64,000 nucleotides of DNA from Deltaproteobacteria bacterium (GTDB taxonomy: Bacteria; Desulfobacterota; Desulfobaccia; Desulfobaccales; 0-14-0-80-60-11): positions 11,891 through 75,890 of the forward strand of contig JACQYN010000118.1 in assembly GCA_016208235.1 (NCBI GenBank). Direction: 5' to 3'. Under the pieces are notes generated by a model. The model did not search any database and was not told the origin of the DNA. It worked only from the letters and a program-made list of their open reading frames with translations. Every line of letters begins with the position of its first letter. Position 1 is the stretch's first letter. This document shows positions 1,113 through 61,938 of the stretch, one piece after another. Position numbers and translations under genes: made by a program.

Positions 1113-2566
1113 GGACAACTGCGGCAGGTCCCCTTCTGCTCCTCTGGCGTCTGTCGCCGCCGGAACATGAAGTTTAAGAATTCCCGGCCCTCCCGGAGCA
1201 GCCGCCGCCGTTCCTCCGGGTCCCGGAGCATTATTTTCGCGGCCCGGGCCATATAGCGGGGCCGGAAATAAAAGCGGCGGTAAAACCGGGGCACGGCCTG
1301 GAAGATTTCGGCTGCGGCCAAGCCCGGATAATCCACCACGCACTGTTGATAGCCGGTCTGGCCGTTGACCAGGCTGTCGGCCTGCATATAGCCCTTCTCC
1401 CGGCAATAATCGTAAAACTCGGTGCCCGGGTAAGGTGTGGCCAGGGAGACCTGGATGGTGTCCGGGTCCAATTCGCAGGCAAAGCGGATGGAAGCCTCAA
1501 TGCTTTTTTGGGTCTCTCCGGGGAGGCCCACCATGAAAGTGCCATGCACCTGGATGCCCAGTTCCCGGCACCATTTGACCAAGCGGCGGCCCAGATCCAG
1601 GGTGGCCCCTTTGCGGATATTCTGTAATACCTGGGGGTCGCCGGTCTCAAAGCCCACCACCAGCAGGCGCAGGCCCCCTTCTTTCATGGCCTTTAAGGTT
1701 TCGTAAGAGGTGTTGACCCGGGCGGTGGCGGACCAGGTGAATTTCATATTCCGGAATTCCTTGCTCAGGTCCCGGGCCCGTTCCCCCGCGGCGGTGAAGG
1801 TGTCGTCATCGAAAAAGATCTCCGCGGCCTGGGGGAAGAGTTCTAGTGTCCGGCGCACCTCGGCCACCACGTTGGCAACGCTGCGCACCCGGAAGCGCCG
1901 GCCGGTGAAGGTCTGGGGCCAGAGGCAATAGACACAGTGGGCCGGGCAGCCCCGGCCCGTATAAAAAGAGACATAGGGATAGCGGAGGTAGGGAATGTTG
2001 TAATGCTCCATGACCAGGTCCCGGTGGTAAATCTCAGTGACCATGGGCAGCGCGTCCAGGTCCTCGATCCAGGAGCGATCCGGGTTATGTTTGATCTGGC
2101 CGTTTTGCCGGTAGCTGATCCCCTGAATCTCTGCCCAGGTCTTTCCTTGGGCCACCTCCAGGATGGCATAGTCAAACTCCCGGCGGGCCACAAAGTCCAC
2201 CTGGGGCCCCGCGGCCAGGGATTCCCCGGGCAGGACGCTCACCTGGGGACCCACCAGGCCCGCCAGCAATTTGGGGTTTTCTTCTTTAAGGCGGGTAATG
2301 GTCGCCAGGTCATGCTGAAAAGAAGGACTGGTGGTGAACAGGACCGCCAGGTCGAAGTCCCGGGCCATGGTGGCCACCTGGGAAGCTGTCATATTCTCCG
2401 GGGGCGCGTCCACCACCCGGCTCTCGGGAATGAGCCCCGCGGGGTAGCAGAGCCAGGTGGGATACCAGAAGGAGGTCACCTCCCGGGTGGCCTGGTAGCG
2501 GGAACCCGCGCCGCCGTCAAAGTCTTGAAAAGAAGGAGGGTTTAGCAACAGGGTGCGTTTCATCAA
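1109..2566 (-). CDS. B12-binding-domain radical SAM enzyme, HpnJ-like
   Basis: 485 aa. The N-terminus MMKRTLLLNPPSFQDFDGGAGSRYQATREVTSFWYPTWL and the core YTGRGCPAHCVYCLWP (CX3CX2C) match my recollection of the HpnJ family. The family call is from memory, not searched. Confidence 0.8.
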   Translation of the reverse strand: MMKRTLLLNPPSFQDFDGGAGSRYQATREVTSFWYPTWLCYPAGLIPESRVVDAPPENMTASQVATMARDFDLAVLFTTSPSFQHDLATITRLKEENPKLLAGLVGPQVSVLPGESLAAGPQVDFVARREFDYAILEVAQGKTWAEIQGISYRQNGQIKHNPDRSWIEDLDALPMVTEIYHRDLVMEHYNIPYLRYPYVSFYTGRGCPAHCVYCLWPQTFTGRRFRVRSVANVVAEVRRTLELFPQAAEIFFDDDTFTAAGERARDLSKEFRNMKFTWSATARVNTSYETLKAMKEGGLRLLVVGFETGDPQVLQNIRKGATLDLGRRLVKWCRELGIQVHGTFMVGLPGETQKSIEASIRFACELDPDTIQVSLATPYPGTEFYDYCREKGYMQADSLVNGQTGYQQCVVDYPGLAAAEIFQAVPRFYRRFYFRPRYMARAAKIMLRDPEERRRLLREGREFLNFMFRRRQTPEEQKGTCRSCP

Positions 2567-2860
2567 TTACCTCTTAAGGTCGCGCAGAAACTCAATGATA
2601 GCCGGATATTATCCAAGACGTCCCGGTTTGTCCAGGGAAAGAAGGCAATTTTAAAAATAGGGACAGACGCTATTTATTCCGCCCCCTGAGCCCAGGCCCC
2701 CTGCCTTTCAGTCTTTAAAAAATAGCCTCTTTCCCTATTTTTCCCTTTTATTATGTTTAAAATTTAGAAATGAACTTTTGCACTTATCCCAAGATGATTA
2801 TTATTGGGAAAGAGGGAAATTTTTCCTGCGAAATATCGATTTATGCAACCAGGCAACTTA

Positions 2861-2920: not shown

Positions 2921-5131
2921 ATGCCCAAAGAAACCACGGAAGTCACCCTCACCCTGGAAGGCATGCACTGCGCTTCCTGTGTGGCCCGGGTGGAAAGGGC
3001 CCTGAGCGGGGTGCCCGGGGTGGAGCAGGCCCTGGTCAACCTGGCCACCCGCCAGGCTAAGGTCAGGTACGACGCACAGCAGACCGCGGTGGAAAACTTG
3101 CAGGCCGTGGTCCATGATGCTGGCTATGAGGTTACCGGCTGGGCTCTGGAAGCCCCTCCACCCGTTTCTCCGGAGATCGAGGCCCAAAACCTTAAGCGCC
3201 GTTTTCTCCTGGCCCTGATCTTGAGCCTCCCCGTCTTTCTGGGGGCCATGGTGCCGCCTCTGCCGGGGTGGTTGGGCCTGAAGCCGGAGCCCCTGGCTTA
3301 TCTGCTCCTGATCTTCACCACCCCGGTGTTGTTCTATTCCGGCGCGCCTTTTTTCCGGGGCGCGCTGAGCGCAGCCCGCCACGCCGCGGCTAATATGGAT
3401 ACCCTGGTGGCCCTGGGGACCAGCGCCGCATACTTTTATTCCGCGTGGGTGACTTTTTGGCCCCAATCAGTGGTTGCTCCCGGCAAAAGCCCGGACCTCT
3501 ACTTCGACACCACGGCCATGATTATCACCTTCATCCTCCTGGGCCGCTGGCTGGAGGCCCGCACCCGGGGCCGGGCCTCCCAGGCCATCCGCCGCCTCTT
3601 CGCCCTGGCCCCGCCCAACGCCCGCATCCGCCGGGAAGGCCTGGAATTGGAGGTGCCCCTGGAGCAGGTGCTGGTGGGGGACTTGATGACCGTGCGCCCC
3701 GGAGAGAAGATCCCGGTGGACGGGGTGGTGGTGGAGGGCGCGTCCAGCGTGGACGAATCCATGCTCACCGGGGAGAGCGTGCCGGTGGCCAAGGAACCGG
3801 GCGCCGAAGTCTGGGGGGCCACCCTCAACCAGCGAGGGTTTCTGGTCTTTAAGGCCACCCGGGTGGGCCGGGACATGGTGCTCTCGCAGATCATCCGCCT
3901 GGTGGAAGAGGCCCAGACCAGTAAGGCCCCCATTGAACGCCTGGTGGACCGGGTGGCGGGGATTTTCGTCCCTGTGGTCATGGGCCTGGCCGGCCTCACC
4001 TTCCTGGGTTGGCTGGTCTGGGGCCCGGCCCCGGCTCTCACCCCGGCCCTGGTCAGCATGGTGGCGGTCCTTATCATCGCCTGCCCCTGCGCCATGGGCC
4101 TGGCCACCCCCACCGCGGTGATGGTGGGCTCCGGCCGGGGCGCGGAAATGGGCATCCTGCTGCGGGGCGGCGAACCCCTGGAGCGGGCCTACCGCCTCAC
4201 CGCGGTGGTCTTCGACAAGACCGGCACCCTCACTCAAGGCCGCCCCCAGGTCACGGACATCCTGGCCTGGGAAGGCTGGCCTGAAGACCAGGTCCTGGCC
4301 TGGGCCGCGGCCGTGGAAGAAAAATCGGAACATCCCCTGGCGGAGGCTGTAACCCACGCCGCGGCCCACCGGCAACTACCGCTGCCGCTGGTGGCGGAGT
4401 TTCAGGCCATTCCGGGGCTGGGAGTCAAGGCTAGAATTGAAGGGCAGGAAGTACTCCTGGGCAATCTCACCTTCCTTAATCGGGAAAATATTCTGGTTCA
4501 GGCCCTCACCCCCCACCAGGAGCGCTTGGCCCAGGAAGGCAAAACCACCATCTTCCTGGTGGCCGGGGGTAAACCGGTGGGGCTGCTGGCCGCCGCGGAT
4601 ACCCTGAAACCGGGAGCCAAGGCGGCTGTGGCCGCGATCCAGGCCATGAATCTGAAAGTTGTCCTCCTCAGCGGCGACAACCGCCTGGCCGTGGAGGCTG
4701 CAGCCCGCACCGTGGGCATCTCCGAAGTGCTGGCGGAAGTCCTTCCCGGGGACAAGGCCCGCAAGGTCGCAGAATTGCAAGCTGCCGGGGAGACCGTGGC
4801 CATGGTGGGAGACGGCATTAACGACGCCCCGGCCCTGGCCCAGGCCGATGTGGGCATAGCCCTGGGCACCGGCGCGGACGTGGCCGCGGAAGCCGCGGAC
4901 CTGACCCTCATCCGGGACGACCTGACCCTCATCCCTCAGGCCATTCACCTCTCCCGGAAAATGATGCGCATCATCCGCCAGAACCTCTTTTGGGCCTTCT
5001 GTTACAACGTGGTGGCCATCCCCGCGGCTTCCCTGGGGCTGCTCAACCCGGCCATCGCCGCCGCGGCCATGGCGATGAGTTCGGTGAGCGTGGTTACAAA
5101 TTCCCTGCGCCTCCGGCGTTTTCGAGGGTAG
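2921..5131 (+). CDS. copA: copper-translocating P1B-type ATPase
   Basis: N-terminal HMA motif [11 protein letters not shown] motif ([13 protein letters not shown]), DKTGTLT phosphorylation site, GDGINDAP hinge. 736 aa. Confidence 0.95.
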
Positions 5132-6750: not shown

Positions 6751-7128
6751 ATGCGCATATTTCCTGTGATAATACTGGCCGTCCTCCTCTTGGCCGGTTG
6801 TTCCGTGGGCATGGCCCTGTACGGCCATTCCGAGCCGGATTTGCGAAACATCCAGGTGGGCAAGGATCGTAAAGAGGTGGAATCCTACCTGGGAAAGCCG
6901 GTGAAGACGAAAACCGAGGATTGGCGAACCATCGCCGTTTATAAATACCAGGTGGGCAATGAACCCGCGCCGGCCCGGGCGGGGATGCACGCCATCCTGG
7001 ACGTGGGCACCTTGGGCCTCTGGGAATTCATCGGCACCCCCATTGAACTGATCAAGGGGAGCACCCGACGGCTCACTGTTATCTATGGACCGGACAATAA
7101 GGTCGTGGAGATTAAGAAAGGCGGCTGA
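6751..7128 (+). CDS. small lipoprotein, unknown function
   Basis: Lipobox LLLAGC after a hydrophobic leader. 125 aa. No family recognised. Confidence 0.6.
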   Translation: MRIFPVIILAVLLLAGCSVGMALYGHSEPDLRNIQVGKDRKEVESYLGKPVKTKTEDWRTIAVYKYQVGNEPAPARAGMHAILDVGTLGLWEFIGTPIELIKGSTRRLTVIYGPDNKVVEIKKGG

Positions 7129-7137
7129 CTGTAAAAT

Positions 7138-7361
7138 ACGGTTTTCATTTTTTGGTTTTCAGTTTTCAATTAAAAAAAGTTGGACTATCCATGGTTATGG
7201 GCGGAGTCATCACTCTGCTTATCTGCTTTCCCCAACCCACCCATATAAGTCAGCCGGGGAATTCGGGGCTGCAGCGCCGACTTCTCCGGCTGCTAATCAA
7301 TTCAACATCTGATATCTCGATATTATTTAACCGAAAACCGAAAACCGAAAACTGAAAACTG
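7138..7361. repeat. ~225-bp element bounded by inverted (CGAAAAC)n arrays (MITE-like)
   Basis: Left arm acggttttcattttttggttttcagttttc (7138-7172). Right arm aaccgaaaaccgaaaaccgaaaactgaaaactg (7329-7361). Fills the spacer between two convergent genes. Confidence 0.85.
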
Positions 7362-7363
7362 TA

Positions 7364-8827
7364 TCATTCCCCCTCCACCAACAGCTTATAGAGGTTCAGG
7401 TAGGCGGACGCGGACCTTTCCCAGGAGAAGTCCTGGGACATGGCGTTTTCCACGAGACGGCGCCATTGCTTCTGATTCTTGTAAGCCTTCAGGGCCGCGT
7501 TGATGGCCGCCGCGAAGGCTTCCGGGGTGTAGTCGGTGAACAGGAAGCCGGTGCCCGAGCCTACGGCCGGGTCGGCCTGGGCCACGGTGTCGGCCAGGCC
7601 GCCGGTGGCCCGGACAATGGGAATGGTGCCGTATTTTAGGGAATACATCTGGTTGAGGCCGCAGGGCTCAAACCGGGAGGGCATGAGGAACATGTCCGCG
7701 CCGGCTTCCATGAGGTGAGCCAGGGCGTTGTCGAACGCGATCTTCACTCCCAGTTTGCCGGGGTATTTGGGGGCTTCCTGGGCCAGCCAGCGGTGGTATT
7801 TTTCCTCCCCGGTGCCCAGGATGACCACCATCAGGTCCTGGTCCAGGAGTTCCGGGAGCATCGCGGCCACCAGGTCGAAGCCTTTCTGGTCCGCCAGACG
7901 GGAGATCATGGCCAGGATGGGGGCCTTGGACAGCTTGGGGTCCAGATTGAAGGCCTCCATCAGCGCGGCCTTGTTCTTGGCCTTGCCCGCGAGGTTGCCC
8001 TTGCTGAAGGTGGCGGGGATGAGGCGATCGTTTTCCGGGCTCCAATCCTGATAATCCACCCCGTTCAAAATGCCGTGCAGGGCAGAGGCCCGGGCCCGCA
8101 GCAAGCCTTCCAGGCCGTAGCCGAACTCCGGGGTCTGAATCTCTTCGCTGTAGCCGACGCTGACGGTGGTGATGGCGTCGGCAAAGACGATCCCCCCTTT
8201 GAGCAGGCTGATCTGGTCGTAATATTCCAGGCCGTCAATACCGAACAGGGACCAGTCCAGGCCCAGAAGAGGAAATTTCTCTTTATAAAAAAGCCCCTGG
8301 TAGGCCAGATTATGAATGGTGAGCACGGTCTTGGCCCCGTTCAGAATTTCCGCCCCCTGCCATCGGTGGCGCAGGTAAACCGGAACCAAGGAAGACTGCC
8401 AGTCGTGGCAATGGATCACATCCGGCTGAAAGCCCAGGTTCTGGCAAACCGGCAGGATGGTGGAGCAGAAAAAAGAAAAGCGCTCCAGGTTGTCGAAATA
8501 ATCGCCTTTGGGCGTGCCGTAAAGCTGAGAGCGTTCAAAGAACTCATCCCGCTCCACGAAATAAAAGGGGTAATCGCCGGACTCGGGGGTCTTCACATCA
8601 AAGGCCAGCCCGGTTCCCCCCAAATGCCCTTCCAGGTTTTCCGCCACCGTGGTCATGGGAATCTTGCCCTGCTTGACCATGCCGTAATAAGGCATGAGGA
8701 CCCGGACGTCTGAGCCCAGGTCCTTCAGGGCGTTAGGCAGGGTGCCCACCACGTCGGCCAACCCCCCGGTCTTGGCAAAAGGCACCGCTTCCGAGGCAAC
8801 AAACAACACCCGCAAATTCCGCGCCAT
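7364..8827 (-). CDS. glgA: glycogen synthase
   Basis: 487 aa. N-terminal VLFVASEAVPFAKTGGLADVVGTLP motif and overall GT5 glycogen synthase pattern. AAGGAGG Shine-Dalgarno upstream. Confidence 0.95.
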   Translation of the reverse strand: MARNLRVLFVASEAVPFAKTGGLADVVGTLPNALKDLGSDVRVLMPYYGMVKQGKIPMTTVAENLEGHLGGTGLAFDVKTPESGDYPFYFVERDEFFERSQLYGTPKGDYFDNLERFSFFCSTILPVCQNLGFQPDVIHCHDWQSSLVPVYLRHRWQGAEILNGAKTVLTIHNLAYQGLFYKEKFPLLGLDWSLFGIDGLEYYDQISLLKGGIVFADAITTVSVGYSEEIQTPEFGYGLEGLLRARASALHGILNGVDYQDWSPENDRLIPATFSKGNLAGKAKNKAALMEAFNLDPKLSKAPILAMISRLADQKGFDLVAAMLPELLDQDLMVVILGTGEEKYHRWLAQEAPKYPGKLGVKIAFDNALAHLMEAGADMFLMPSRFEPCGLNQMYSLKYGTIPIVRATGGLADTVAQADPAVGSGTGFLFTDYTPEAFAAAINAALKAYKNQKQWRRLVENAMSQDFSWERSASAYLNLYKLLVEGE

Positions 8828-8842: not shown

Positions 8843-8900
8843 CGGTTTTCAGTTTTCGGTTTTCGGTTTTCGGTTATAAATATATCGAATAATCGTATGG
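8843..8900. repeat. (GTTTTCG)n array plus ATCGA-box flank in the glgA leader
   Basis: acggttttcagttttcggttttcggttttcggtt ataaatatatcgaataatcg. Inverted relative to 7329-7361. Confidence 0.9.
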
Positions 8901-8964
8901 TTAAATTAAGCGTCGTCCTCTCAAGGGATCAGTGGCCAGAAAATATGGATTTTTTGCTACTAAT

Positions 8965-8996
8965 CCCTGGCCCCTGACCCCTGACCCCTGGCCCCT
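8965..8996. repeat. 7-nt tandem array (CCCTGGC/CCCTGAC)
   Basis: Same family as 4-38. Overlaps the stop codon (8995-8997) of the NYN gene. A complementary-orientation copy lies at 57751-57771. Confidence 0.9.
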
Positions 8997-9917: not shown

Positions 9918-10868
9918 TCAAAAAATCGGCCTTTCCCCAGCCACGGGGCGGAAGGGAGCGGCGTCGGTAAGCACCCTTCCCTCCTTTTCCAGCCGCGTCT
10001 GCAAATAAACGGGCAGGTGCGGCAGGCCTGCGGCGAACTCCGGTCCCATCCACCGCAGTGGCGGCATGGCCCGGTCTTCGAGGCGGGTTGCCGCTTCCCA
10101 GGGGGAGGGCCAGTCAAAGTCATCCCCTCCGGCCAGATGGAAACCGTAGAGGTCCATAAAGCTGGGGACAAAAGCGGTATAGGCCAGCACCCTGGGAAAG
10201 ACGGCCCTGAGAGTGCAGTTGAGGTCCGGCAGGAGCCGGCCCCAGGGACCGGCTGTGCCTGATTGCAAGGCCACCAGGCCTCCAGGCGCGAGTTTGCTCC
10301 GGACCAGGTTATAAAACTCCCGGGTAAACAACAGCAGGGCCGGGCCCTCTTCCAGGGGCTCCGGCAGATCCAGGATGATGACGTCGAAACTCCCGTCCGG
10401 CTGAGCCGCCAGCCAGGCGCGGCCGTCGGCAAACACCAGTTCCGTGCGGGGGGCGTCGAAAGCCCCTTGATGGAACTCCGGCAGCCACTTGCGGCAGACC
10501 TCCACCAACTCCTGGTCGATGTCCGCCATCACCGCGGCTTCAACCAAGGAATGGCGCAGCACCTCCCGCAAAGTGGCCCCTTCCCCGCCGCCCAGCACCA
10601 GCACCCGCCGGGGTTCGGGATGGGCCAACATCACCGGGTGCACCAGGGCTTCATGGTAGATAAATTCGTCTTTCTCCGCGGACTGCAGCCTGCCGTCCAG
10701 GAGCAAGACCTTGCCCCAGAGCCGGCTGAGAAAAATTTCATATTCCTGAAAGCGGGTCTTCCCGAAGACCAGGACTTTCTGCTTCTCATAGGCCACCAGG
10801 TCCGCAGGGCTGGACAGGTCAATGAACCAATCTCCCGATGGCCAGGATGGGGACGACAAATCGCTCAT
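9918..10868 (-). CDS. speE: spermidine synthase-like polyamine aminopropyltransferase
   Basis: LLLDGRLQSAEKDEFIYHEALVHP, VLVLGGGEGATLREVL, DIDQELV and FDVIILDLPEP motifs. Confidence 0.8.
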   Translation of the reverse strand: MSDLSSPSWPSGDWFIDLSSPADLVAYEKQKVLVFGKTRFQEYEIFLSRLWGKVLLLDGRLQSAEKDEFIYHEALVHPVMLAHPEPRRVLVLGGGEGATLREVLRHSLVEAAVMADIDQELVEVCRKWLPEFHQGAFDAPRTELVFADGRAWLAAQPDGSFDVIILDLPEPLEEGPALLLFTREFYNLVRSKLAPGGLVALQSGTAGPWGRLLPDLNCTLRAVFPRVLAYTAFVPSFMDLYGFHLAGGDDFDWPSPWEAATRLEDRAMPPLRWMGPEFAAGLPHLPVYLQTRLEKEGRVLTDAAPFRPVAGERPIF

Positions 10869-11309
10869 TTTCTCCGTTCGCTCAGCATGGTTTTGCAGAT
10901 TATAATCGAAAAATCTTAGAGAGAAACTATTTTCAATGCAAGACGGGGTGAGAAGAAGTTGAAGTTTCTTAAATTGTTCTAGAAAAATGGTCGGATAAAA
11001 AGAATTAGTGAGGTTAGAGGACAGGGTCTAAAGGCGGGCGCGGAGGCCCGCCCCACTATCAAAAGGAAATGTATTGGTGGGGCGGCCATCCCTGGCCGCC
11101 TCCAAGAGTTCCTGGGAAAAAGGATTTACTTCACGTTCCCCAGCTTTGCTTGGGAACCAGAAGAATGTGGAACAGCCGCCCCCGGCTGTAATCGGGCAGG
11201 CGAGGGCGCCTGCTCCACATCCTGGTCCTCATCATACAAGCCTCTTTTTTATGAGGTCTCGCACCGGGTAATTTTGATAGAATGGGGCGAATCGGCTTAA
11301 GGGGGCGGA

Positions 11310-12063: not shown

Positions 12064-12140
12064 TCTCACGCAAAGACGCAAAGGCGCTAAAGATTTAATA
12101 TAATTATTGCGTCTTTGGGCCTTTGCGTCTTTGCGTGAGA
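12064..12140. repeat. hairpin with 8-nt periodic arms (CGCAAAGA)n
   Basis: tctcacgcaaagacgcaaaggcgc ... gcgtctttgggcctttgcgtctttgcgtgaga, between the S-component stop and the ATPase ORF. Confidence 0.9.
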
Positions 12141-13806: not shown

Positions 13807-13882
13807 GGGGTAGAAACCCCTTGGGCGTGCCGTGCACGCCGATTAATGGCGGCCACGGGCCGCCCTATGGCTGCTTGGAAAA

Positions 13883-14044
13883 GTTCCAAGTTCCCAGTTC
13901 CGTGTTCCAAGTTGAGACTTCTGCGAAAGTCTTTTAAGGTGTCATTCTGAACGGAGCGAAGCTTCGTTTCGAATCTCGTATTTGAGATTCTTCGGTCGCT
14001 TCGCTCCCTCAGAATGACAATTGATGAAGTTTCGCAGAAGTCTC
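13883..14044. repeat. composite nested palindrome, copy I-a
   Basis: GTTCCAA-type 7-mer array (13883-13913), GAGACTTCTGCGAAAG (13914-29) paired with TTTCGCAGAAGTCTC (14030-44), and the core GTCATTCTGA...TCAGAATGAC palindrome (13941-14018). Confidence 0.9.
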
Positions 14045-14282
14045 AAGTTAGGAATTAGCCATCAGGAACTTTTAATAATTTGCGGTAGGCCAACGGCCCA
14101 TGAATAATTGATCTGAAAAGTTGTACCCCGCACAGGCTGGAAAGCCTGTGCTACCGATACTTTTTATGGTTTATGGGTGAGCCTAAGGTCCATGAGGACC
14201 TGCCTTGATTTTTGATTTTTAAGCTGATGGCTGAAAGCTATTCGCCTTCTTTTTCATGGACCTTGACCGAACGGAGGCATCT

Positions 14283-15102: not shown

Positions 15103-15373
15103 AGCTGTCAGCTATCAGCTATCAGCTGTCAGCTGTCAGCTTAATTGAAGAACTATTAGAGATTGGAGCTAAATCGAGTTCAGCTGAAGTTTTGGGGTCT
15201 GCCTTAATTTTTGATTTTATACCAAGTCGCAAACAAAAAACGCAGTATCGTAGGGGCGCACCCGTGTGTGCGCCCGAGTCCGGGGCGGACACATGGGTCC
15301 GCCCCTACAAGAAAATTGTCTTTTGTTTGCGACTTGGTATTAAAGCTGATGGCTGAAAGCTGATAGCTGAAAG
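15103..15373. repeat. composite nested palindrome, type II
   Basis: Outer (CAGCTRT)n arms at 15103-15141 / 15344-15373, enclosing the element at 15219-15340. Confidence 0.9.
15219..15340. mobile_element. 122-bp MITE-like palindromic insertion (ATACCAAG...CTTGGTAT)
   Basis: 20-bp perfect terminal inverted repeats (ataccaagtcgcaaacaaaa / ttttgtttgcgacttggtat) around a GTAGGGGCG...CGCCCCTAC double hairpin. An uninterrupted version of the flanks exists at 14201-14240. Confidence 0.65.
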
Positions 15374-20502: not shown

Positions 20503-20575
20503 TCTCACGCAAAGACGCAAAGACACAAAGAAAATAAATGCTTTGCGCCTTTGCGCCTTGGCGTCTTTGCGTGAG
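20503..20575. repeat. hairpin with 8-nt periodic arms (CGCAAAGA)n, second copy
   Basis: tctcacgcaaagacgcaaagacacaaag ... ctttgcgcctttgcgccttggcgtctttgcgtgag. Abuts the aconitase stop (20576-78) and lies 19 nt before the ALDH start. Confidence 0.9.
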
Positions 20576-22538: not shown

Positions 22539-22725
22539 AGTGGTCAGTGGCCAGTGGTCAGTTAGAGAGCTCTGAAAAAGTCTTGTCTGTCATCCTGAGC
22601 GAAGCGAAAGATCTCGTATTTGAGAGATTCTTCGGTCGCTCCGCTCCCTCAGAATGACATAAAAGACCAATTTTACAGAGGTCTCAGTCTTTTTTCTGGC
22701 CACTGGCCACTGACCACTGACCACT
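22539..22725. repeat. composite nested palindrome, copy I-b
   Basis: (CAGTGGY)n arms at 22539-22562 / 22696-22725, degenerate GAGAGCTCTGAAAAAG layer, and core GTCATCCTGA...TCAGAATGAC (22589-22658). The right arm overlaps the 3' end of CDS 22684..25395. Confidence 0.9.
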
Positions 22726-27315: not shown

Positions 27316-27524
27316 TGGATCTCCGGTGGTTGGGGGAGGAGGCTAAAAAGTTGTCAGTGGTCAGTGGTGCCGTCCACGTTTTTTCGTTTATAACTGGCAA
27401 CTGACTACTGTTTTACCCCCTCTCCACGCTTCCCATCTTTAATACTTACGATCCCTTGTGGAACCGATATGATATTGTTCATATATTAGAAGAAACATGG
27501 GAAACTGGCAAGGAGGAGGGTAAG

Positions 27525-43029: not shown

Positions 43030-43153
43030 CCAGTGGTCAGTGGCCAGTGATCAGTTTTTAGTTTTCGGTTTTGGGTTTTGGGTTTTGGGTTTTATCTTAC
43101 AAGGATTAAATGCCTATACTTACCTAATCACTGGCCACTGACCACTGACCACT
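43030..43153. repeat. (CAGTGGY)n inverted arms enclosing a (GTTTTSG)n array, ftsW-murG spacer
   Basis: ccagtggtcagtggccagtgatcagt (43030-55), tttttagttttcggttttgggttttgggttttgggtttt (43056-94), tcactggccactgaccactgaccact (43129-53). Confidence 0.9.
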
Positions 43154-50622: not shown

Positions 50623-50648
50623 ACGGTTTTCAGTTTTCGGTTTTCGGT
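50623..50648. repeat. (GTTTTCG)n array abutting the ftsZ stop
   Basis: gattaaaat-acggttttcagttttcggttttcggt. The ftsZ TAA lies inside the conserved TTAAAATAC flank. Confidence 0.9.
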
Positions 50649-50720: not shown

Positions 50721-50830
50721 ATACCAAGAAATTGTAGGGGCGGACCCGCGTGTCCGCCCTTGGGTGGGCGCACACACATGGGTGCGCCCCTACAACAGAT
50801 AATTCTAGTTTTTTGACGGCAACTTGGTAT
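50721..50830. mobile_element. second copy of the ATACCAAG...CTTGGTAT element, flanked by a 19-bp direct repeat
   Basis: Core tgtaggggcggacccgcgtgtccgccc..gggcgcacacacatgggtgcgcccctaca. Flanks tacaatatcaaactattgc (50700-18) and tacaatatcaaactactgc (50831-49). Confidence 0.6.
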
Positions 50831-52795: not shown

Positions 52796-53176
52796 GTGGG
52801 GGAGGGGGCTAAGGGCCGGTAGCACAGGCGTCTCGCCTGTGGACCTTAGCCCCCTTCCCCTATACCCGCCACAGGCGCTAACTTAAACAATATTTGTCAT
52901 TCTGAACGGAGCGAAGCGGAGTGAAGAATCTCTAATTTTCCTACGAAATGAGAGATTCTTCGCTGCGCTCAGAATGACAAAAAGCCTTATGTTAACGCTT
53001 ATGCCCACACCCCCTCCCCCAATCCCATAAGCTTTGGTGGCACAGGCTTCCAGCCTGTGCGGTCAACTCGCTGGGTCTCCTATCTCATGCTGATTTACCT
53101 GCAAACGACATGTTCTGTAGGGGCGAACCTTGTGTTCGCCCACGATTCCCCAGGCGAACACAAGGTTCGCCCCTAC
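52796..53176. repeat. cluster of at least four different palindrome families in one spacer
   Basis: 52796-52858 (GGGGAGGGGGCTAAGG..CACAGGCG..), 52896-52978 (GTCATTCTGA core), 53038-53060 (CACAGGC hairpin), 53118-53176 (GTAGGGGCGAAC...GTTCGCCCCTAC). Confidence 0.9.
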
Positions 53177-55970: not shown

Positions 55971-56160
55971 CAGGCACTCTCCTTTGGGATGAAATTTATC
56001 TTAATCGAAATAATATCGGACGTTATCCAATTTTCCATTAAGGGTCAATTAAAAGGCCTGATTAAATTGATGTTCGAAACATCCAATAATTGCTGATAAA
56101 ATTGATGGAAGGATAAAATGTAAGCGGACACTGCCCGCCAGAATCTCTTTTTTTTTTCAC

Positions 56161-56192
56161 GGAAAACGGAAAACAGAAAACGGGTATTTAAA
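56161..56192. repeat. (GGAAAAC)n array plus GGGTATTTAAA flank forming the leader of the pterin-binding gene
   Basis: ggaaaacggaaaacagaaaacgggtatttaaa followed directly by ATG 56193. Compare with the copA leader. Confidence 0.85.
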
Positions 56193-57650: not shown

Positions 57651-57674
57651 GTTTTTGGTTTTTGGTTTTTCGTT
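57651..57674. repeat. (GTTTTTG)n array in the leader of the isochorismatase-family pseudogene
   Basis: gtttttggtttttggtttttcgtt, 20 nt upstream (minus strand) of the start at 57631. Confidence 0.8.
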
Positions 57675-60173: not shown

Positions 60174-61412
60174 ATGATTTCTCCAAACCTTCAGGATAAC
60201 TGCACGCCGGCCCTAGACGGGGAAAATTTTTTCTTTGAGATGGGCCCCATCCGCCCCCCCAGCGAAGGCAGCGACCATTCCCTGCTGATCCGCACCACCA
60301 GGAACTGCAGTTGGAACCGGTGTGAGTTTTGCGGCACCTACCGGGGGGAAAAATTCAGTTACCGGCCGGTGGCGGAGATTAAGAAAGATATCGAGGTGGC
60401 CCGGACTCTGTATGAGGAATTGCAAGCCGTTGCCGCCCGGGGTGGGGTCCGGGAGATCAGTTCCCAGGCAGTGCGCTCTCTCTGGGCCGGCAACCCCCGG
60501 CGTTATGGGGAAAGTGCCGGGAATCTGACCCTTAAATGGCAAAATCTCCACAACGTCGCTAACTGGCTCCATGCCGGGGCCAAAACCGTGTTTCTCCAGG
60601 ACGCGGACGCCTTAATCATGCGCACCCCGGATTTACTGGAGGTTATCACCTATCTGCGCGCGGCCTTCCCCACGGTGGCGCGGGTCACCGCGTATGCCCG
60701 CTCCCAGAGTTGTTACCGCAAGTCATTGGAAGAATTAAGTGAATTACGCCAGGCGGGCCTGCTGCGGTTGCACGTGGGTCTGGAATCCGGCTGCGACGCG
60801 GTGCTCAAACGGATGAAAAAAGGAGTCTCCGCCCGGAAACAAGTGGAAGGCGGCCAAAAGGTGGTGGCCGCGGGCATCTCGCTGTGCGAATACCTCATGC
60901 CCGGCCTGGGGGGCAAGGATTTTTCCGAGAGGCATGCCCTGGACAGCGCCGCGGTGTTGACCGCCATCAACCCGGCTTTCATCCGCCTGCGCAGTTTGGC
61001 CCTGCGCCGCCATTCCCCCCTGTTGGCCCAAAGCAAGGAGGGACTCTTCACCGAACTCTCCGAAGACGGCGTAGTGGCGGAGATTGCCTTGCTGATCGCC
61101 AACTTGCATTGCCACTCGTATCTGGTCTCCGACCAGATGTCCAACCTGCTGTATGGCGTAGAAGGGCAACTGCCCCAGGATAAAGAGAAAATATTGCAGG
61201 TGATCGACGATTATTTACAAAAACCGGAGTCGGAGAGATTGGCTTTCCGGCTGCGGCAGCGCCGGCGGTCTTTCCTGGCGGTTTACGGCTCTCTTCCCGA
61301 ACCCCTGGAAGAAAAGGCCGAATTAGCCTGGGACGCCCTCCGCCGGGAATCCCCCGAAGCCCGGGAACGGGTGGACGCCGCTATTGCTGCGCTCAAGGAG
61401 GGTTTTGTTTGA
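60174..61412 (+). CDS. radical SAM-like protein with CX4CX2C cluster motif
   Basis: 412 aa. GPIRPPSEG..SLLIRTTRNCSWNRCEFCGTY, read directly from codons tgc agt tgg aac cgg tgt gag ttt tgc at ~60306-60332. TIM-barrel-like remainder. The start (60174 or 60240) is uncertain. Confidence 0.75.
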   Translation: MISPNLQDNCTPALDGENFFFEMGPIRPPSEGSDHSLLIRTTRNCSWNRCEFCGTYRGEKFSYRPVAEIKKDIEVARTLYEELQAVAARGGVREISSQAVRSLWAGNPRRYGESAGNLTLKWQNLHNVANWLHAGAKTVFLQDADALIMRTPDLLEVITYLRAAFPTVARVTAYARSQSCYRKSLEELSELRQAGLLRLHVGLESGCDAVLKRMKKGVSARKQVEGGQKVVAAGISLCEYLMPGLGGKDFSERHALDSAAVLTAINPAFIRLRSLALRRHSPLLAQSKEGLFTELSEDGVVAEIALLIANLHCHSYLVSDQMSNLLYGVEGQLPQDKEKILQVIDDYLQKPESERLAFRLRQRRRSFLAVYGSLPEPLEEKAELAWDALRRESPEARERVDAAIAALKEGFV

Positions 61413-61448
61413 TTTTTCTGGTCGTGTGGAGGGAGGAGCAGGGGTACT

Positions 61449-61787
61449 AAGCTGTCAGCTATCATCTGTCAGCTTAAAAGAATATGGAGTTTGATTGTAA
61501 ATTGAGACCTCTGCGAAAGCCTACTCAGCTGTCATTCTGAGGGAGCGGAGCGACCGAAGAATCTCGTTTTTGGCAGTACAGCTTTTCCAGATGGTGCCGA
61601 TGATTCCACCCAGATTGGAAATCCTGGGCGCTAAAATACGAGATTCTTCACTCCGCTTCGCTCCGTTCAGAATGACATTTTAAAGACTTTCGCAGAGGTC
61701 TCAAATTGAGATAAACCAGGATTCCGATCTTAATTTCAAATCTTGCTTTAAAAAAAGCTGAAAGCTGACTGCTGAAAGCTGTAAGCT
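61449..61787. repeat. composite nested palindrome, copy I-c (largest)
   Basis: (CAGCTRT)n arms 61449-61475 / 61755-61787. GAGACCTCTGCGAAAG 61504-19 pairs with CTTTCGCAGAGGTCTC 61687-702. The core GTCATTCTGA...CAGAATGAC at 61531-61676 has an enlarged loop. Confidence 0.9.
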
Positions 61788-61806
61788 ATTTATTAGAGGT
61801 CCACGC

Positions 61807-61938
61807 ATGCCCAAAAAAGCGATCTGGCTGGTGATCATTTTTACCGCCCTCTTCATTCTGGGGATCAATACCGGAGACCTGGAGTACCTCATGAACCTGG
61901 GCAACACCATCTGCCTGTCCTGCATCGGAGTGGGTTGA
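61807..61938 (+). CDS. 43-aa membrane protein with C-terminal CXXC (not in ORF track)
   Basis: My translation: MPKKAIWLVIIFTALFILGINTGDLEYLMNLGNTICLSCIGVG. AGAGG at 61795-99 lies 7 nt upstream of the ATG. The stop TGA 61936-38 overlaps the ATG (61938) of the next gene. Confidence 0.5.
   Translation: MPKKAIWLVIIFTALFILGINTGDLEYLMNLGNTICLSCIGVG

Follow-up and report, generated by a model that had tools for sequence, protein, structure and literature searches.

The 64-kb stretch analyzed here (64,000 bases of contig JACQYN010000118.1 from a deltaproteobacterial metagenome-assembled genome, MAG; hereafter the window) contains three loci in which palindromes seem to be packed into one another like Russian dolls: an innermost inverted pair is wrapped by a middle inverted repeat, which itself lies next to tandem arrays of seven-base repeats (heptamers). 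[quoted passage not shown] The nested look is most probably the sum of separate events, in which a MITE derived from the IS5 family of insertion sequences (IS) and equipped with a pair of hairpins as its core landed in or between unrelated heptamer arrays.

The element inside the nested palindromes

If up to one mismatch is allowed, the inner 11-mer TGTCATTCTGA occurs at 8 sites of the window, which form four inverted pairs (13940/14019, 22588/22659, 52895/52979 and 61530/61677). By chance, about 0.47 sites per window are expected and none of 100 shuffled sequences reached 8. The middle 16-mer GAGACYTCTGCGAAAG was found with up to three mismatches at 6 sites, in three inverted pairs that enclose three of the four inner pairs (chance level about 0.83 per window; 0 of 100 shuffles reached 6), and repeat finding located period-7 tandem arrays outside of both layers. 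The three loci of the initial annotation are thus real and far above chance if the counts are compared to shuffles, and so is its observation that the inner layer also occurs solo, as a pair without MITE ends at 52895-52979. The layers wrap one another as described there, except that the middle layer of copy 2 is degenerate: compared to the consensus GAGACYTCTGCGAAAG / CTTTCGCAGARGTCTC, the two arms carry 0+0 mismatches in copy 3, 0+1 in copy 1 and 3+3 in copy 2.

Aligned with one another, copies 1 and 2 in forward and copy 3 in reverse orientation match end to end between the outer 16-mers. This includes the spacers (TCTTTTAA...) and an asymmetry of the inner arms, with the variant GAGATTCTTCGGTCGCTYCGCTCCCTCAGAATGACA on one side and a longer or shorter variant on the other. 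Since the three copies align across both layers, spacers and asymmetry included, they represent one oriented element of about 131 bases and not three separate nestings. Beyond the 16-mers the similarity ends. The high similarity of the 120-130-base cores might also be explained if the three loci were recent segmental duplicates of one another, a possibility the initial annotation had itself raised against its view. However, the similarity stops at the terminal repeats, while the heptamers, the 5-base target duplications (AAGTT, AGTTA/AGTCT and AAATT) and the neighbouring genes all differ. Consequently, the loci are no segmental duplicates; this explanation is refuted and we assign it practically no probability.

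What kind of element this is became apparent from metagenome contigs. A scan with GAGACYTCTGCGAAAG, in which one exact terminal repeat per locus was demanded and up to three mismatches were accepted in its partner, yielded 120 loci. The inverted pairs among them cluster at a spacing of about 113-116 bases, while four pairs are 1134-1225 bases apart. At L168, L161, L150 and L216, GAGACYTCTGCGAAAG bounds elements of about 1.15-1.24 kb, each with one open reading frame (ORF) of 317-330 amino acids (aa). The transposase ORFs of L168 and L216, the two that were scanned, match Pfam DUF772 and DDE_Tnp_1 as well as the NCBIfam model NF033581 of IS5-family transposases (E 8e-82 and 3e-76). These full-length elements come from metagenome contigs and not from the genome of the window, and the closest transposases in a plasmid collection, of the IS5 family, share at most 42% identity with the parent transposase. 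About 60 metagenome matches that lack an inverted partner with up to three mismatches in their locus look like chance hits, and the 22 single matches to GAGACYTCTGCGAAAG in viral contigs are consistent with chance as well.

The insertion sites of these elements show a clear signature. For L168 the junctions read ccAAGTT/GAGACCTCTGCGAAAGTCC ... TTTAGCAGAGTTCTC/AAGTTgc, with slashes at the element borders. Exact direct repeats of 5 bases surround 28 of 58 terminal-repeat pairs, compared to 0.06 expected, and no other length is enriched. The duplicated pentamers are mainly AAGTT, AACTT and AAATT, but TTAGA, ATCCG, TGAAG and others were found as well, and since they vary in sequence, they are real target duplications and not part of the ends. 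The preferred target is AAnTT. In the window, the duplications are exact in copy 1 (AAGTT) and copy 3 (AAATT), while those of copy 2 (AGTTA/AGTCT) match at three of five positions. With 131 (copy 1), 121 (copy 2) and 199 bases (copy 3), the elements consist almost wholly of terminal repeat or hairpin unit. Only short spacers are left over in copies 1 and 2, to which copy 3 adds an insertion in its centre. This extra DNA had been noticed initially, yet it comprises about 64 bases (61572-61635) instead of about 75, and no similar sequence was found in the rest of the window or in the loci L001-L246.

The window elements are non-coding, IS5-family-derived MITEs, and because they resemble the full IS over no more than about 20-25 bases at either end, they are 'type II' MITEs in the sense of PMC10969869. 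With other IS-derived MITEs of this type, such as Chunjie of Geobacter, Nezha of cyanobacteria and the Correia element (PMC10969869, PMC3184786), they share a non-coding length of 121-199 bases, terminal inverted repeats of 16-20 bases in common with a full-length IS that is similar at the ends only, a target duplication of fixed length, multiple intergenic copies and orthologous sites that are filled or empty. In contrast to them, the core of the window MITE is itself a dimer of TGTC-headed hairpins, and that of a sister subfamily apparently a GTAG-type dimer. A name for the family was not found in our literature search.

This sister subfamily combines the same ends with another core. At about a dozen metagenome loci the element spans 129-130 bases in total and contains two GC-rich hairpins (...GTGGCGTAGGCGCCCTCGCCTGCGCC...GGACAGCCGAGGGCGGCTATCCTAC...), which by their sequence may be read as a GTAG-headed pair of repetitive extragenic palindromic (REP) sequences. 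Two MITE subfamilies with shared ends, unrelated hairpin-dimer cores and nearly equal length thus stand side by side: L154, L160, L166, L169, L180, L213 and L226 with 129-130 bases, and copy 1, L133, L203, L208, L212 and L225 with 131-132 bases. Other terminal-repeat pairs in the metagenome loci enclose 160-500 bases.

Could the hairpin pair have been inserted separately, locus by locus, into the central loop of a resident MITE? The pair is found solo (52895-52979) and is evidently mobile across phyla, and the sister subfamily carries a different REP-like pair between the same ends. Moreover, a GTAG pair is enclosed by another terminal-repeat family of the window (TACCAAGTYGC, 15220/15329), so that hairpin loops may attract REP pairs, and the centre of copy 3 took a further insertion. 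However, the junctions, the spacers and the asymmetry of the arms (variant A opposite variant B or a short one) are identical in the three window copies, and about 17 metagenome copies of 131-132 bases contain this heterodimer as well, in most cases with a spacer of 22 bases in its centre. Repeated independent insertion would not reproduce such features and we consider this history very unlikely. Of the serial insertion proposed in the initial annotation, the landing of the MITE between older heptamer arrays and the gain of 64 bases in copy 3 hold, while a nesting of the middle and the inner layer at each locus does not. The annotation would also have been undermined by layers that occur independently of one another, and this is largely what we found; the exception is the fixed order of middle over inner layer, which exists because both form one transposable unit.

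The TGTC-headed hairpin unit

All 8 inner units of the window start with TGTC. To describe them beyond the window, we collected exact matches to the pattern TGTCATTCTGA-N(5-30)-GAAGAATCTC, which imposes the combination TT/AA; the following numbers refer to the matches listed. In 119 genome loci the unit has the consensus TGTCA-yy-CTGA-(apical part)-GAAG-rr-TCTC. If TT/AA is excluded, yy and rr are complementary in 82 of 92 units, while 42 would be expected under independence, and the complementary combinations are TC/GA (58), CC/GG (16), TG/CA (7) and CT/AG (1). The apical part is most often GCGNAGC, but may be extended to 15-41 bases, and 49 of 301 units permit three or more extra base pairs. 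The sequence GCGAAGC is a very stable DNA mini-hairpin. In the short form, ATTCTGAGC-GAA-GCGAAGAAT plus CTC, nine 'pairs' are obtained with the tandem G·A/A·G step included, while many units have longer apical parts.

The units mostly occur as dimers that face outward with their heads (87 pairs, compared to 14 heads-inward and 8 direct ones). Among the 87 heads-outward pairs, 59 have partners with unlike covarying positions, and in 74 the apical parts of the partners are not the same. Covariation within the units together with differing partners suggests that each inner unit is a hairpin of its own and that the supposed palindrome is a heterodimer of two hairpins. The innermost layer is hence an inverted pair, as initially described, but its arms are two different variants of one hairpin unit rather than simple complements. 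As DNA, the solo pair at 52895-52979 folds with -28.9 kcal/mol (z -8.1). Two other readings were dropped: a hammerhead ribozyme formed by the CUGA...GAAG core lacks the conserved GA after CUGAN, and a CRISPR array is excluded by inverted repeats and the lack of regular spacing.

The pattern is widespread. It was found in at least 119 species-representative genomes and in 117 viral contigs (IMG/VR, L247-L363), several of which contain 3-5 copies. According to the record titles, the hosts comprise Chloroflexota, Acidobacteriota, Bacteroidota, Nitrospirota, Omnitrophota and Patescibacteria/CPR (candidate phyla radiation), as well as Verrucomicrobiota, Planctomycetota, Armatimonadota, Clostridia and Proteobacteria. 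Thus the core exists without MITE ends at many places, and its host range is far beyond the five phyla listed in 2013 for CGTC repeats; carriage by viral contigs could be one route between phyla. When the locus was compared to plasmids by BLAST, only matches of 41-43 bases to the inner arm were obtained, in Calothrix and Planktothrix, and a full-text literature search with the inner sequence returned vectors and primers only.

Some arrangements of the unit are noteworthy on their own. In Terriglobia and other MAGs (L021, L028, L080, L081, L096 and L006) one unit lies within another, in the form TGTCATyCTGAGCCC..TTCGC(TGTCATTCTGAGCGnAGCGAAGAATCTC)GC..GCTCAGGG..AAGnATCTC, while in L005, L102 and L065 partial units of about 20 bases follow one another in tandem. 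In the window, a short hairpin CACAGGC-N(5-6)-GCCTGTG is present in six copies (6656, 14131, 25409, 52823, 53041 and 57891), two of which flank the solo dimer.

With respect to its class, the unit resembles the CGTC-tagged REPs. These start with CGTC (TGTC is accepted as a variant), comprise a stem of 8-9 pairs that begins with A-T and T-A, loops of 4-5 bases and 3-base tails, and mostly form inverted homo- or heterodimers with spacers of 20-100 bases (PMC3733652). They were described from five phyla without a dedicated transposase, and the Neisseria family CGTC-1 is identical to dRS3 (PMC3733652). The window-type units agree in the TGTC head, the inverted and often heterodimeric arrangement with such spacers, the extragenic location and the occurrence in many phyla, and a stem of about nine pairs starting with A-T and T-A, with a short loop and a 3-base tail, may be drawn for them. 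They differ by the tandem G·A/A·G step in the stem, by an apical part that often reaches 15-40 bases, and by the tail CTC instead of CCA. REPINs are alike in that two inverted hairpin repeats plus spacer replicate together, and such a unit can adopt either a single long hairpin or two hairpins (PMC3116915). However, REPINs are GTAG-headed and tied to Y1 (HUH) transposases, the RAYTs, while the window units are of the CGTC/TGTC type. A tblastn search with an E. coli RayT sequence gave no match in the window or in L001-L239, which is a weak negative result.

A second link leads to small nucleases. NTS is a 28-base extension of dRS3, CGTCATTCCCGCGMAVGCGGGAATCYRG, which the single-domain GIY-YIG protein SsnA binds and cuts solely as single-stranded DNA (PMC11893778); such cleavage was demonstrated for SsnA of Neisseria and few homologues only. 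Across bacteria, ssn genes are commonly located between hairpin repeats (Ssn-related motifs, SRMs), and the arrangement NTS-ssnA-NTS is insertion-sequence-like (PMC11893778). An all-against-all comparison of the ORFs near our units picked out a GIY-YIG family as well. The ORFs of L002, L055 and L063 (93-102 aa), the three that were scanned, match Pfam PF01541 with E of about 1e-17, and the nearest solved structure to the L055 protein is a UPF0213 protein. In four of six occurrences, all in other genomes than that of the window, the gene lies between two outward-facing TGTCAnnCTGA units (Table 1). Thus the NTS-ssnA-NTS layout, a unit-bracketed gene of about 95 aa, is seen here for an ATTCTGA...GAAGAAT variant that the published SRM string does not capture. 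In contrast to NTS-ssnA-NTS (PMC11893778), the window itself is without an ssn-like gene and the dimers of copies 1-3 ride in a DDE-type MITE. Judged by sequence features, we place the window units in the CGTC/TGTC-tagged REP class and regard them as Ssn-like by association, not by SRM definition.

Heptamer arrays and the site of copy 3

The relationship between MITE and heptamers is best seen at copy 3. The protein encoded upstream shares 100% identity with the NCBI entry 'MAG: radical SAM protein [Deltaproteobacteria bacterium]', and its nearest relatives belong to MAGs of Thermodesulfobacteriota, Syntrophales and Desulfobaccales. In five relatives the gene order radical-SAM protein, 43-aa ORF, ferredoxin-like protein and HU is kept. 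In two of them (L240 and L241; radical-SAM protein 89-91% identical to that of the window) the gap after the radical-SAM gene comprises about 90 bases and contains no repeats. In the other three (L242/L243, L244 and L245/L246; 83-85% identical) it measures 157-223 bases and contains inverted AGCTGTC / AAAGCTG arrays that enclose about 80 bases of AT-rich spacer, and nothing else. The window has 394 bases at this place, with the same arrays plus the MITE. If 61504-61707, i.e. the MITE and one AAATT, are removed, 193 bases remain that are collinear, array for array, with L244 (204 bases) and L245 (160 bases). Since MITE-free relatives carry the same array pair, the heptamer pair is older than the MITE and independent of it, and the MITE is an insertion. 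The insertion polymorphism between relatives for which the initial annotation had proposed to look thus exists; this filled/empty comparison covers copy 3 only.

Downstream of copy 3, the 43-aa ORF MPKKAIWLVIIFTALFILGINTGDLEYLMNLGNTICLSCIGVG at 61807-61938 is located directly upstream of the ferredoxin-like gene and overlaps with it. Its position and length are kept in four of the five relatives, while a 54-aa ORF was called there in L242/L243, and its product has the look of a genuine small membrane protein that carries a CxxC at its C-terminus.

Heptamers are abundant throughout the window. A period-7 detector delivered 28 runs, about 20 of which are convincing arrays, and six inverted pairs were found (7149/7329, 15103/15342, 22537/22696, 27349/27392, 43031/43129 and 61449/61754), of which two enclose a MITE. 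As initially noticed, the array sequence differs between the copies: AAGTTCC in copy 1, AGTGGTC/CTGACCA in copy 2 and AGCTGTC/AAAGCTG in copy 3. That heptamers serve as outer arms applies to copies 2 and 3, which arrays flank on both sides, while copy 1 has an array on its left only (13881-13913) and about nine complementary bases on its right (AAAAGTTCC / GGAACTTTT). At copy 3, the arrays do not wrap the middle layer directly, but unique sequence of 22 and 46 bases lies between them and the target duplication. Copy 1 is located next to a GTTCCAA-type array because such arrays hold the preferred target AAGTT, and MITEs inside comparable arrays were found at L123, L163, L184, L209, L218 and L238.

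The four pairs without a MITE span 7149-7363, 15103-15373, 27349-27410 and 43031-43153, and unpaired arrays lie at 1-27, 2880-2910, 8843-8996, 50624-50648, 56159-56183 and 57651-57674. The types comprise AGCTGTC, CAGTGGY, CGGTTTT/AACCGAA, CCCTGRC and GTTTTGG. Many of the inverted pairs bracket a whole intergenic spacer beside gene ends, and the AGCTGTC/AAAGCTG pair at the orthologous site is kept in three relatives (L242-L246) and absent from two (L240 and L241). For Thermodesulfobacteriota, no description of heptamer arrays was found in our literature search.

Short tandem heptamer repeats are known from cyanobacteria as STRR. Elhai et al. (2008) reportedly found tiny palindromic repeats of Nostoc punctiforme nested in one another and in heptamer arrays; sequences and host are others, and we take the resemblance as a lead only. 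Like STRR and the TAACTGA repeats of Beggiatoaceae, cyanobacteria and Bacteroidetes (PMC4679880), the window arrays are intergenic, comprise 3-6 units, come in several types per genome and often lie near gene starts or ends, and close relatives may be array-free. In contrast, the window belongs to a Deltaproteobacteria/Thermodesulfobacteriota MAG, its heptamers are different (AGCTGTC, CAGTGGY, GTTCCAA and CGGTTTT, among others), and many of its arrays form inverted pairs around an intergenic spacer, an arrangement reported only once for TAACTGA repeats (PMC4679880).

Another repeat family of the window resembles the heptamers in style, but has period 8. Its inverted array pairs, (ACGCAAAG)n ... 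(CTTTGCGY)n with the flanks tcTCACGC...GCGTGAGa, occur in two different intergenic regions (12068-12136 and 20507-20571). GTAG-headed REP dimers (GTAGGGGCGCAC..GTGCGCCC / GGGGCGGAC..GTCCGCCCCTAC) are present at least three times (15220-15340, 50734-50830 and 53117-53176). One of them is part of a second Russian doll at 15220/15329, where a GTAG dimer lies inside the inverted repeat TACCAAGTCGCAAACAAAA, itself between AGCTGTC arrays. At L168, L226 and L232 an IS5 element or MITE is inserted in TATACCAAGTT/GCG (slash at the insertion point), which resembles the TACCAAGTCGCAAACAAAA-type repeat, and L226 runs on into a GTAG hairpin.

The second reading of the initial annotation was a structured RNA or DNA whose outer stem needs to pair only. 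This would correspond to a modular RNA or single-stranded DNA with a conserved functional core, in which the heptamer arms co-vary freely. The folds of whole loci are indeed very stable (copy 3: -152.6 kcal/mol, z -12.3; copy 1 as RNA: -77.7, z -11.2), copies 1 and 3 have matching bases on the two arms at the middle layer's Y/R position, and the elements lie in transcribed-looking gaps between genes on the same strand. However, any inverted repeat yields such fold scores, which are no evidence for RNA. Rfam gave no match in the window at gathering thresholds, and even with E up to 10 just two matches of chance level appeared at 61400-61820. Outer arms exist without the core, at the orthologous site and at four other places in the window, while the core lacks heptamer arms in most metagenome loci, and the arms of copy 3 do not adjoin the element. 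The middle layer is explained by target duplications and a full-length parent IS without the need for an RNA. Finally, covariation was measurable inside the inner units only and not between the arms, and the partners of inner pairs mostly differ where each unit covaries internally. Thus we regard a structured RNA or DNA as highly improbable.

Table 1. Positions of the MITE copies, their hairpin units and flanking arrays in the window, and of unit-bracketed GIY-YIG genes in other genomes.
Feature	Position	Strand	Remark
Copy 3, left outer heptamer array, AGCTGTC type, ~3.6 units	61449..61476	.	host intergenic region; same array type at orthologous site of MITE-free L242-L246
Copy 3, left 5-base target-site duplication AAATT	61499..61503	.	
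Copy 3, left terminal inverted repeat of MITE, GAGACCTCTGCGAAAG	61504..61519	+	end also on full IS5-family elements L168, L161, L150, L216
Copy 3, TGTC-headed hairpin unit, variant A, TGTCATTCTGA-GGGAGCGGAGCGACC-GAAGAATCTC	61530..61565	+	
Copy 3, orphan 64-base insertion in the spacer that separates its hairpin units	61572..61635	.	from alignment of three copies
Copy 3, TGTC-headed hairpin unit, variant B	61640..61677	-	
Copy 3, right terminal inverted repeat of MITE, CTTTCGCAGAGGTCTC	61687..61702	-	
Copy 3, right 5-base target-site duplication AAATT	61703..61707	.	
Copy 3, right outer heptamer array, AAAGCTG, 4.9 units	61754..61787	.	inverted relative to left array
Copy 1, heptamer array, AAGTTCC, 4.7 units	13881..13913	.	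last AAGTT is the insertion target
Copy 1, MITE, 131 bases, plus two AAGTT target duplications	13909..14049	+	MITE alone 13914-14044
Copy 1, hairpin units	13940-13977, 13984-14019	+, -	
Copy 2, left heptamer array, AGTGGTC type	22539..22562	.	
Copy 2, degenerate MITE, 121 bases	22565..22685	+	imperfect flank duplication AGTTA/AGTCT
Copy 2, hairpin units	22588-22615, 22624-22659	+, -	
Copy 2, right heptamer array, CTGACCA	22696..22725	.	inverted relative to left array
Solo inverted pair of TGTC-headed hairpin units, no MITE ends	52895..52979	+	units 52895-52932 (+), 52952-52979 (-)
Unit-bracketed GIY-YIG locus, L063 (Lutibacter)	2232-2620		
Unit-bracketed GIY-YIG locus, L002 (Saccharibacteria)	7066-7413		
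Unit-bracketed GIY-YIG locus, L055 (Omnitrophota)	4056-4432		
Unit-bracketed GIY-YIG locus, L350 (viral contig)	10731-11228		

Proposed history and its meaning

Based on these results, we propose the following scenario. An IS5-family DDE transposase, whose gene would lie at another place of the genome, would move the MITE in trans, and each insertion generates a 5-base target duplication, with a preference for AAnTT. The hairpin dimer was probably captured once and then spread as a passenger of the MITE, which landed in or between the pre-existing inverted heptamer arrays that border many intergenic regions. Later, the centre of copy 3 seems to have gained its unrelated 64-base insertion. Each unit would fold on its own, in the order TGTC head, ATTCT-GA, apical mini-hairpin (for instance GCGAAGC), GA-AGAAT and CTC tail. 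An effect on neighbouring genes on the same strand, for example through a strong hairpin in the transcript, would be an incidental side effect.

Several observations do not fit well with this scenario or with the assignments it builds on. Neither a transposase gene nor a GIY-YIG gene is present in the 64-kb window, and mobilisation within this genome is thus an inference. In the window, copy 1 is changed at position 6 and copy 2 at position 12 on both arms alike; since the metagenome scan demanded an exact arm, counts of compensated and uncompensated end changes are biased, and selection for pairing is still compatible with the data. Nearest-neighbour folding of single units gave no significant energy (z about 0 to +1). 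The published SRM string, HGTCWYN(0-2)YYVSBRHN(0-5)WNVSBRGN(0-2)RNCYNB, matches neither strand of the window (0 matches), as the units have CTGA...GAAG where the string demands a G+C-rich stem, and because of this failure we call them Ssn-like by association only. The orthologous empty sites at copy 3 are too diverged to reveal the pre-insertion sequence to the base, and the near-equal length of the two MITE subfamilies (129-131 bases) does not follow from the scenario. Nevertheless, we consider the landing of an IS5-derived MITE in or between older arrays by far the best explanation for the nested architecture.

Consequently, the nested palindromes require neither a new kind of element nor an RNA. 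The initial annotation knew of no described family with such an organisation, but every layer is of a known kind: MITEs (PMC10969869), dimers of CGTC/TGTC REPs (PMC3733652, PMC11893778) and heptamers (PMC4679880). What is new is modest: an unnamed IS5-derived MITE family with a REP-dimer core in Thermodesulfobacteriota-like genomes, its sister subfamily of nearly equal length with apparently another REP type, and a host range of the TGTCATTCTGA unit that is much wider than reported for CGTC repeats.

One might speculate further that IS5-type ends are a general vehicle for REP-type hairpin dimers, given one subfamily of the TGTC type (Ssn-class) and an apparent one of the GTAG type (RAYT-class). 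Our sample of metagenome contigs is biased, and we consider this idea rather unlikely. If it were true, hairpin dimers of single-strand-nuclease systems would have been repeatedly captured and amplified by an unrelated DDE transposase. Alternatively, the element would require the dimer in cis, where a single-strand hairpin might, for instance, aid excision or shield the element. Either case would connect, by cross-mobilisation, two mobile systems that differ in mechanism.

The MITE family and its IS5-family parent are useful for the annotation of Thermodesulfobacteriota genomes and metagenomes, where hairpins of this kind interrupt assemblies and give rise to spurious small ORFs. For the host, a hairpin insertion of 200 bases between the radical-SAM gene and the downstream ferredoxin and HU genes could putatively alter their expression. 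Beyond that, the window provides natural cases of an Ssn-class hairpin dimer in a DDE-type transposon, which may bear on how such repeats spread.

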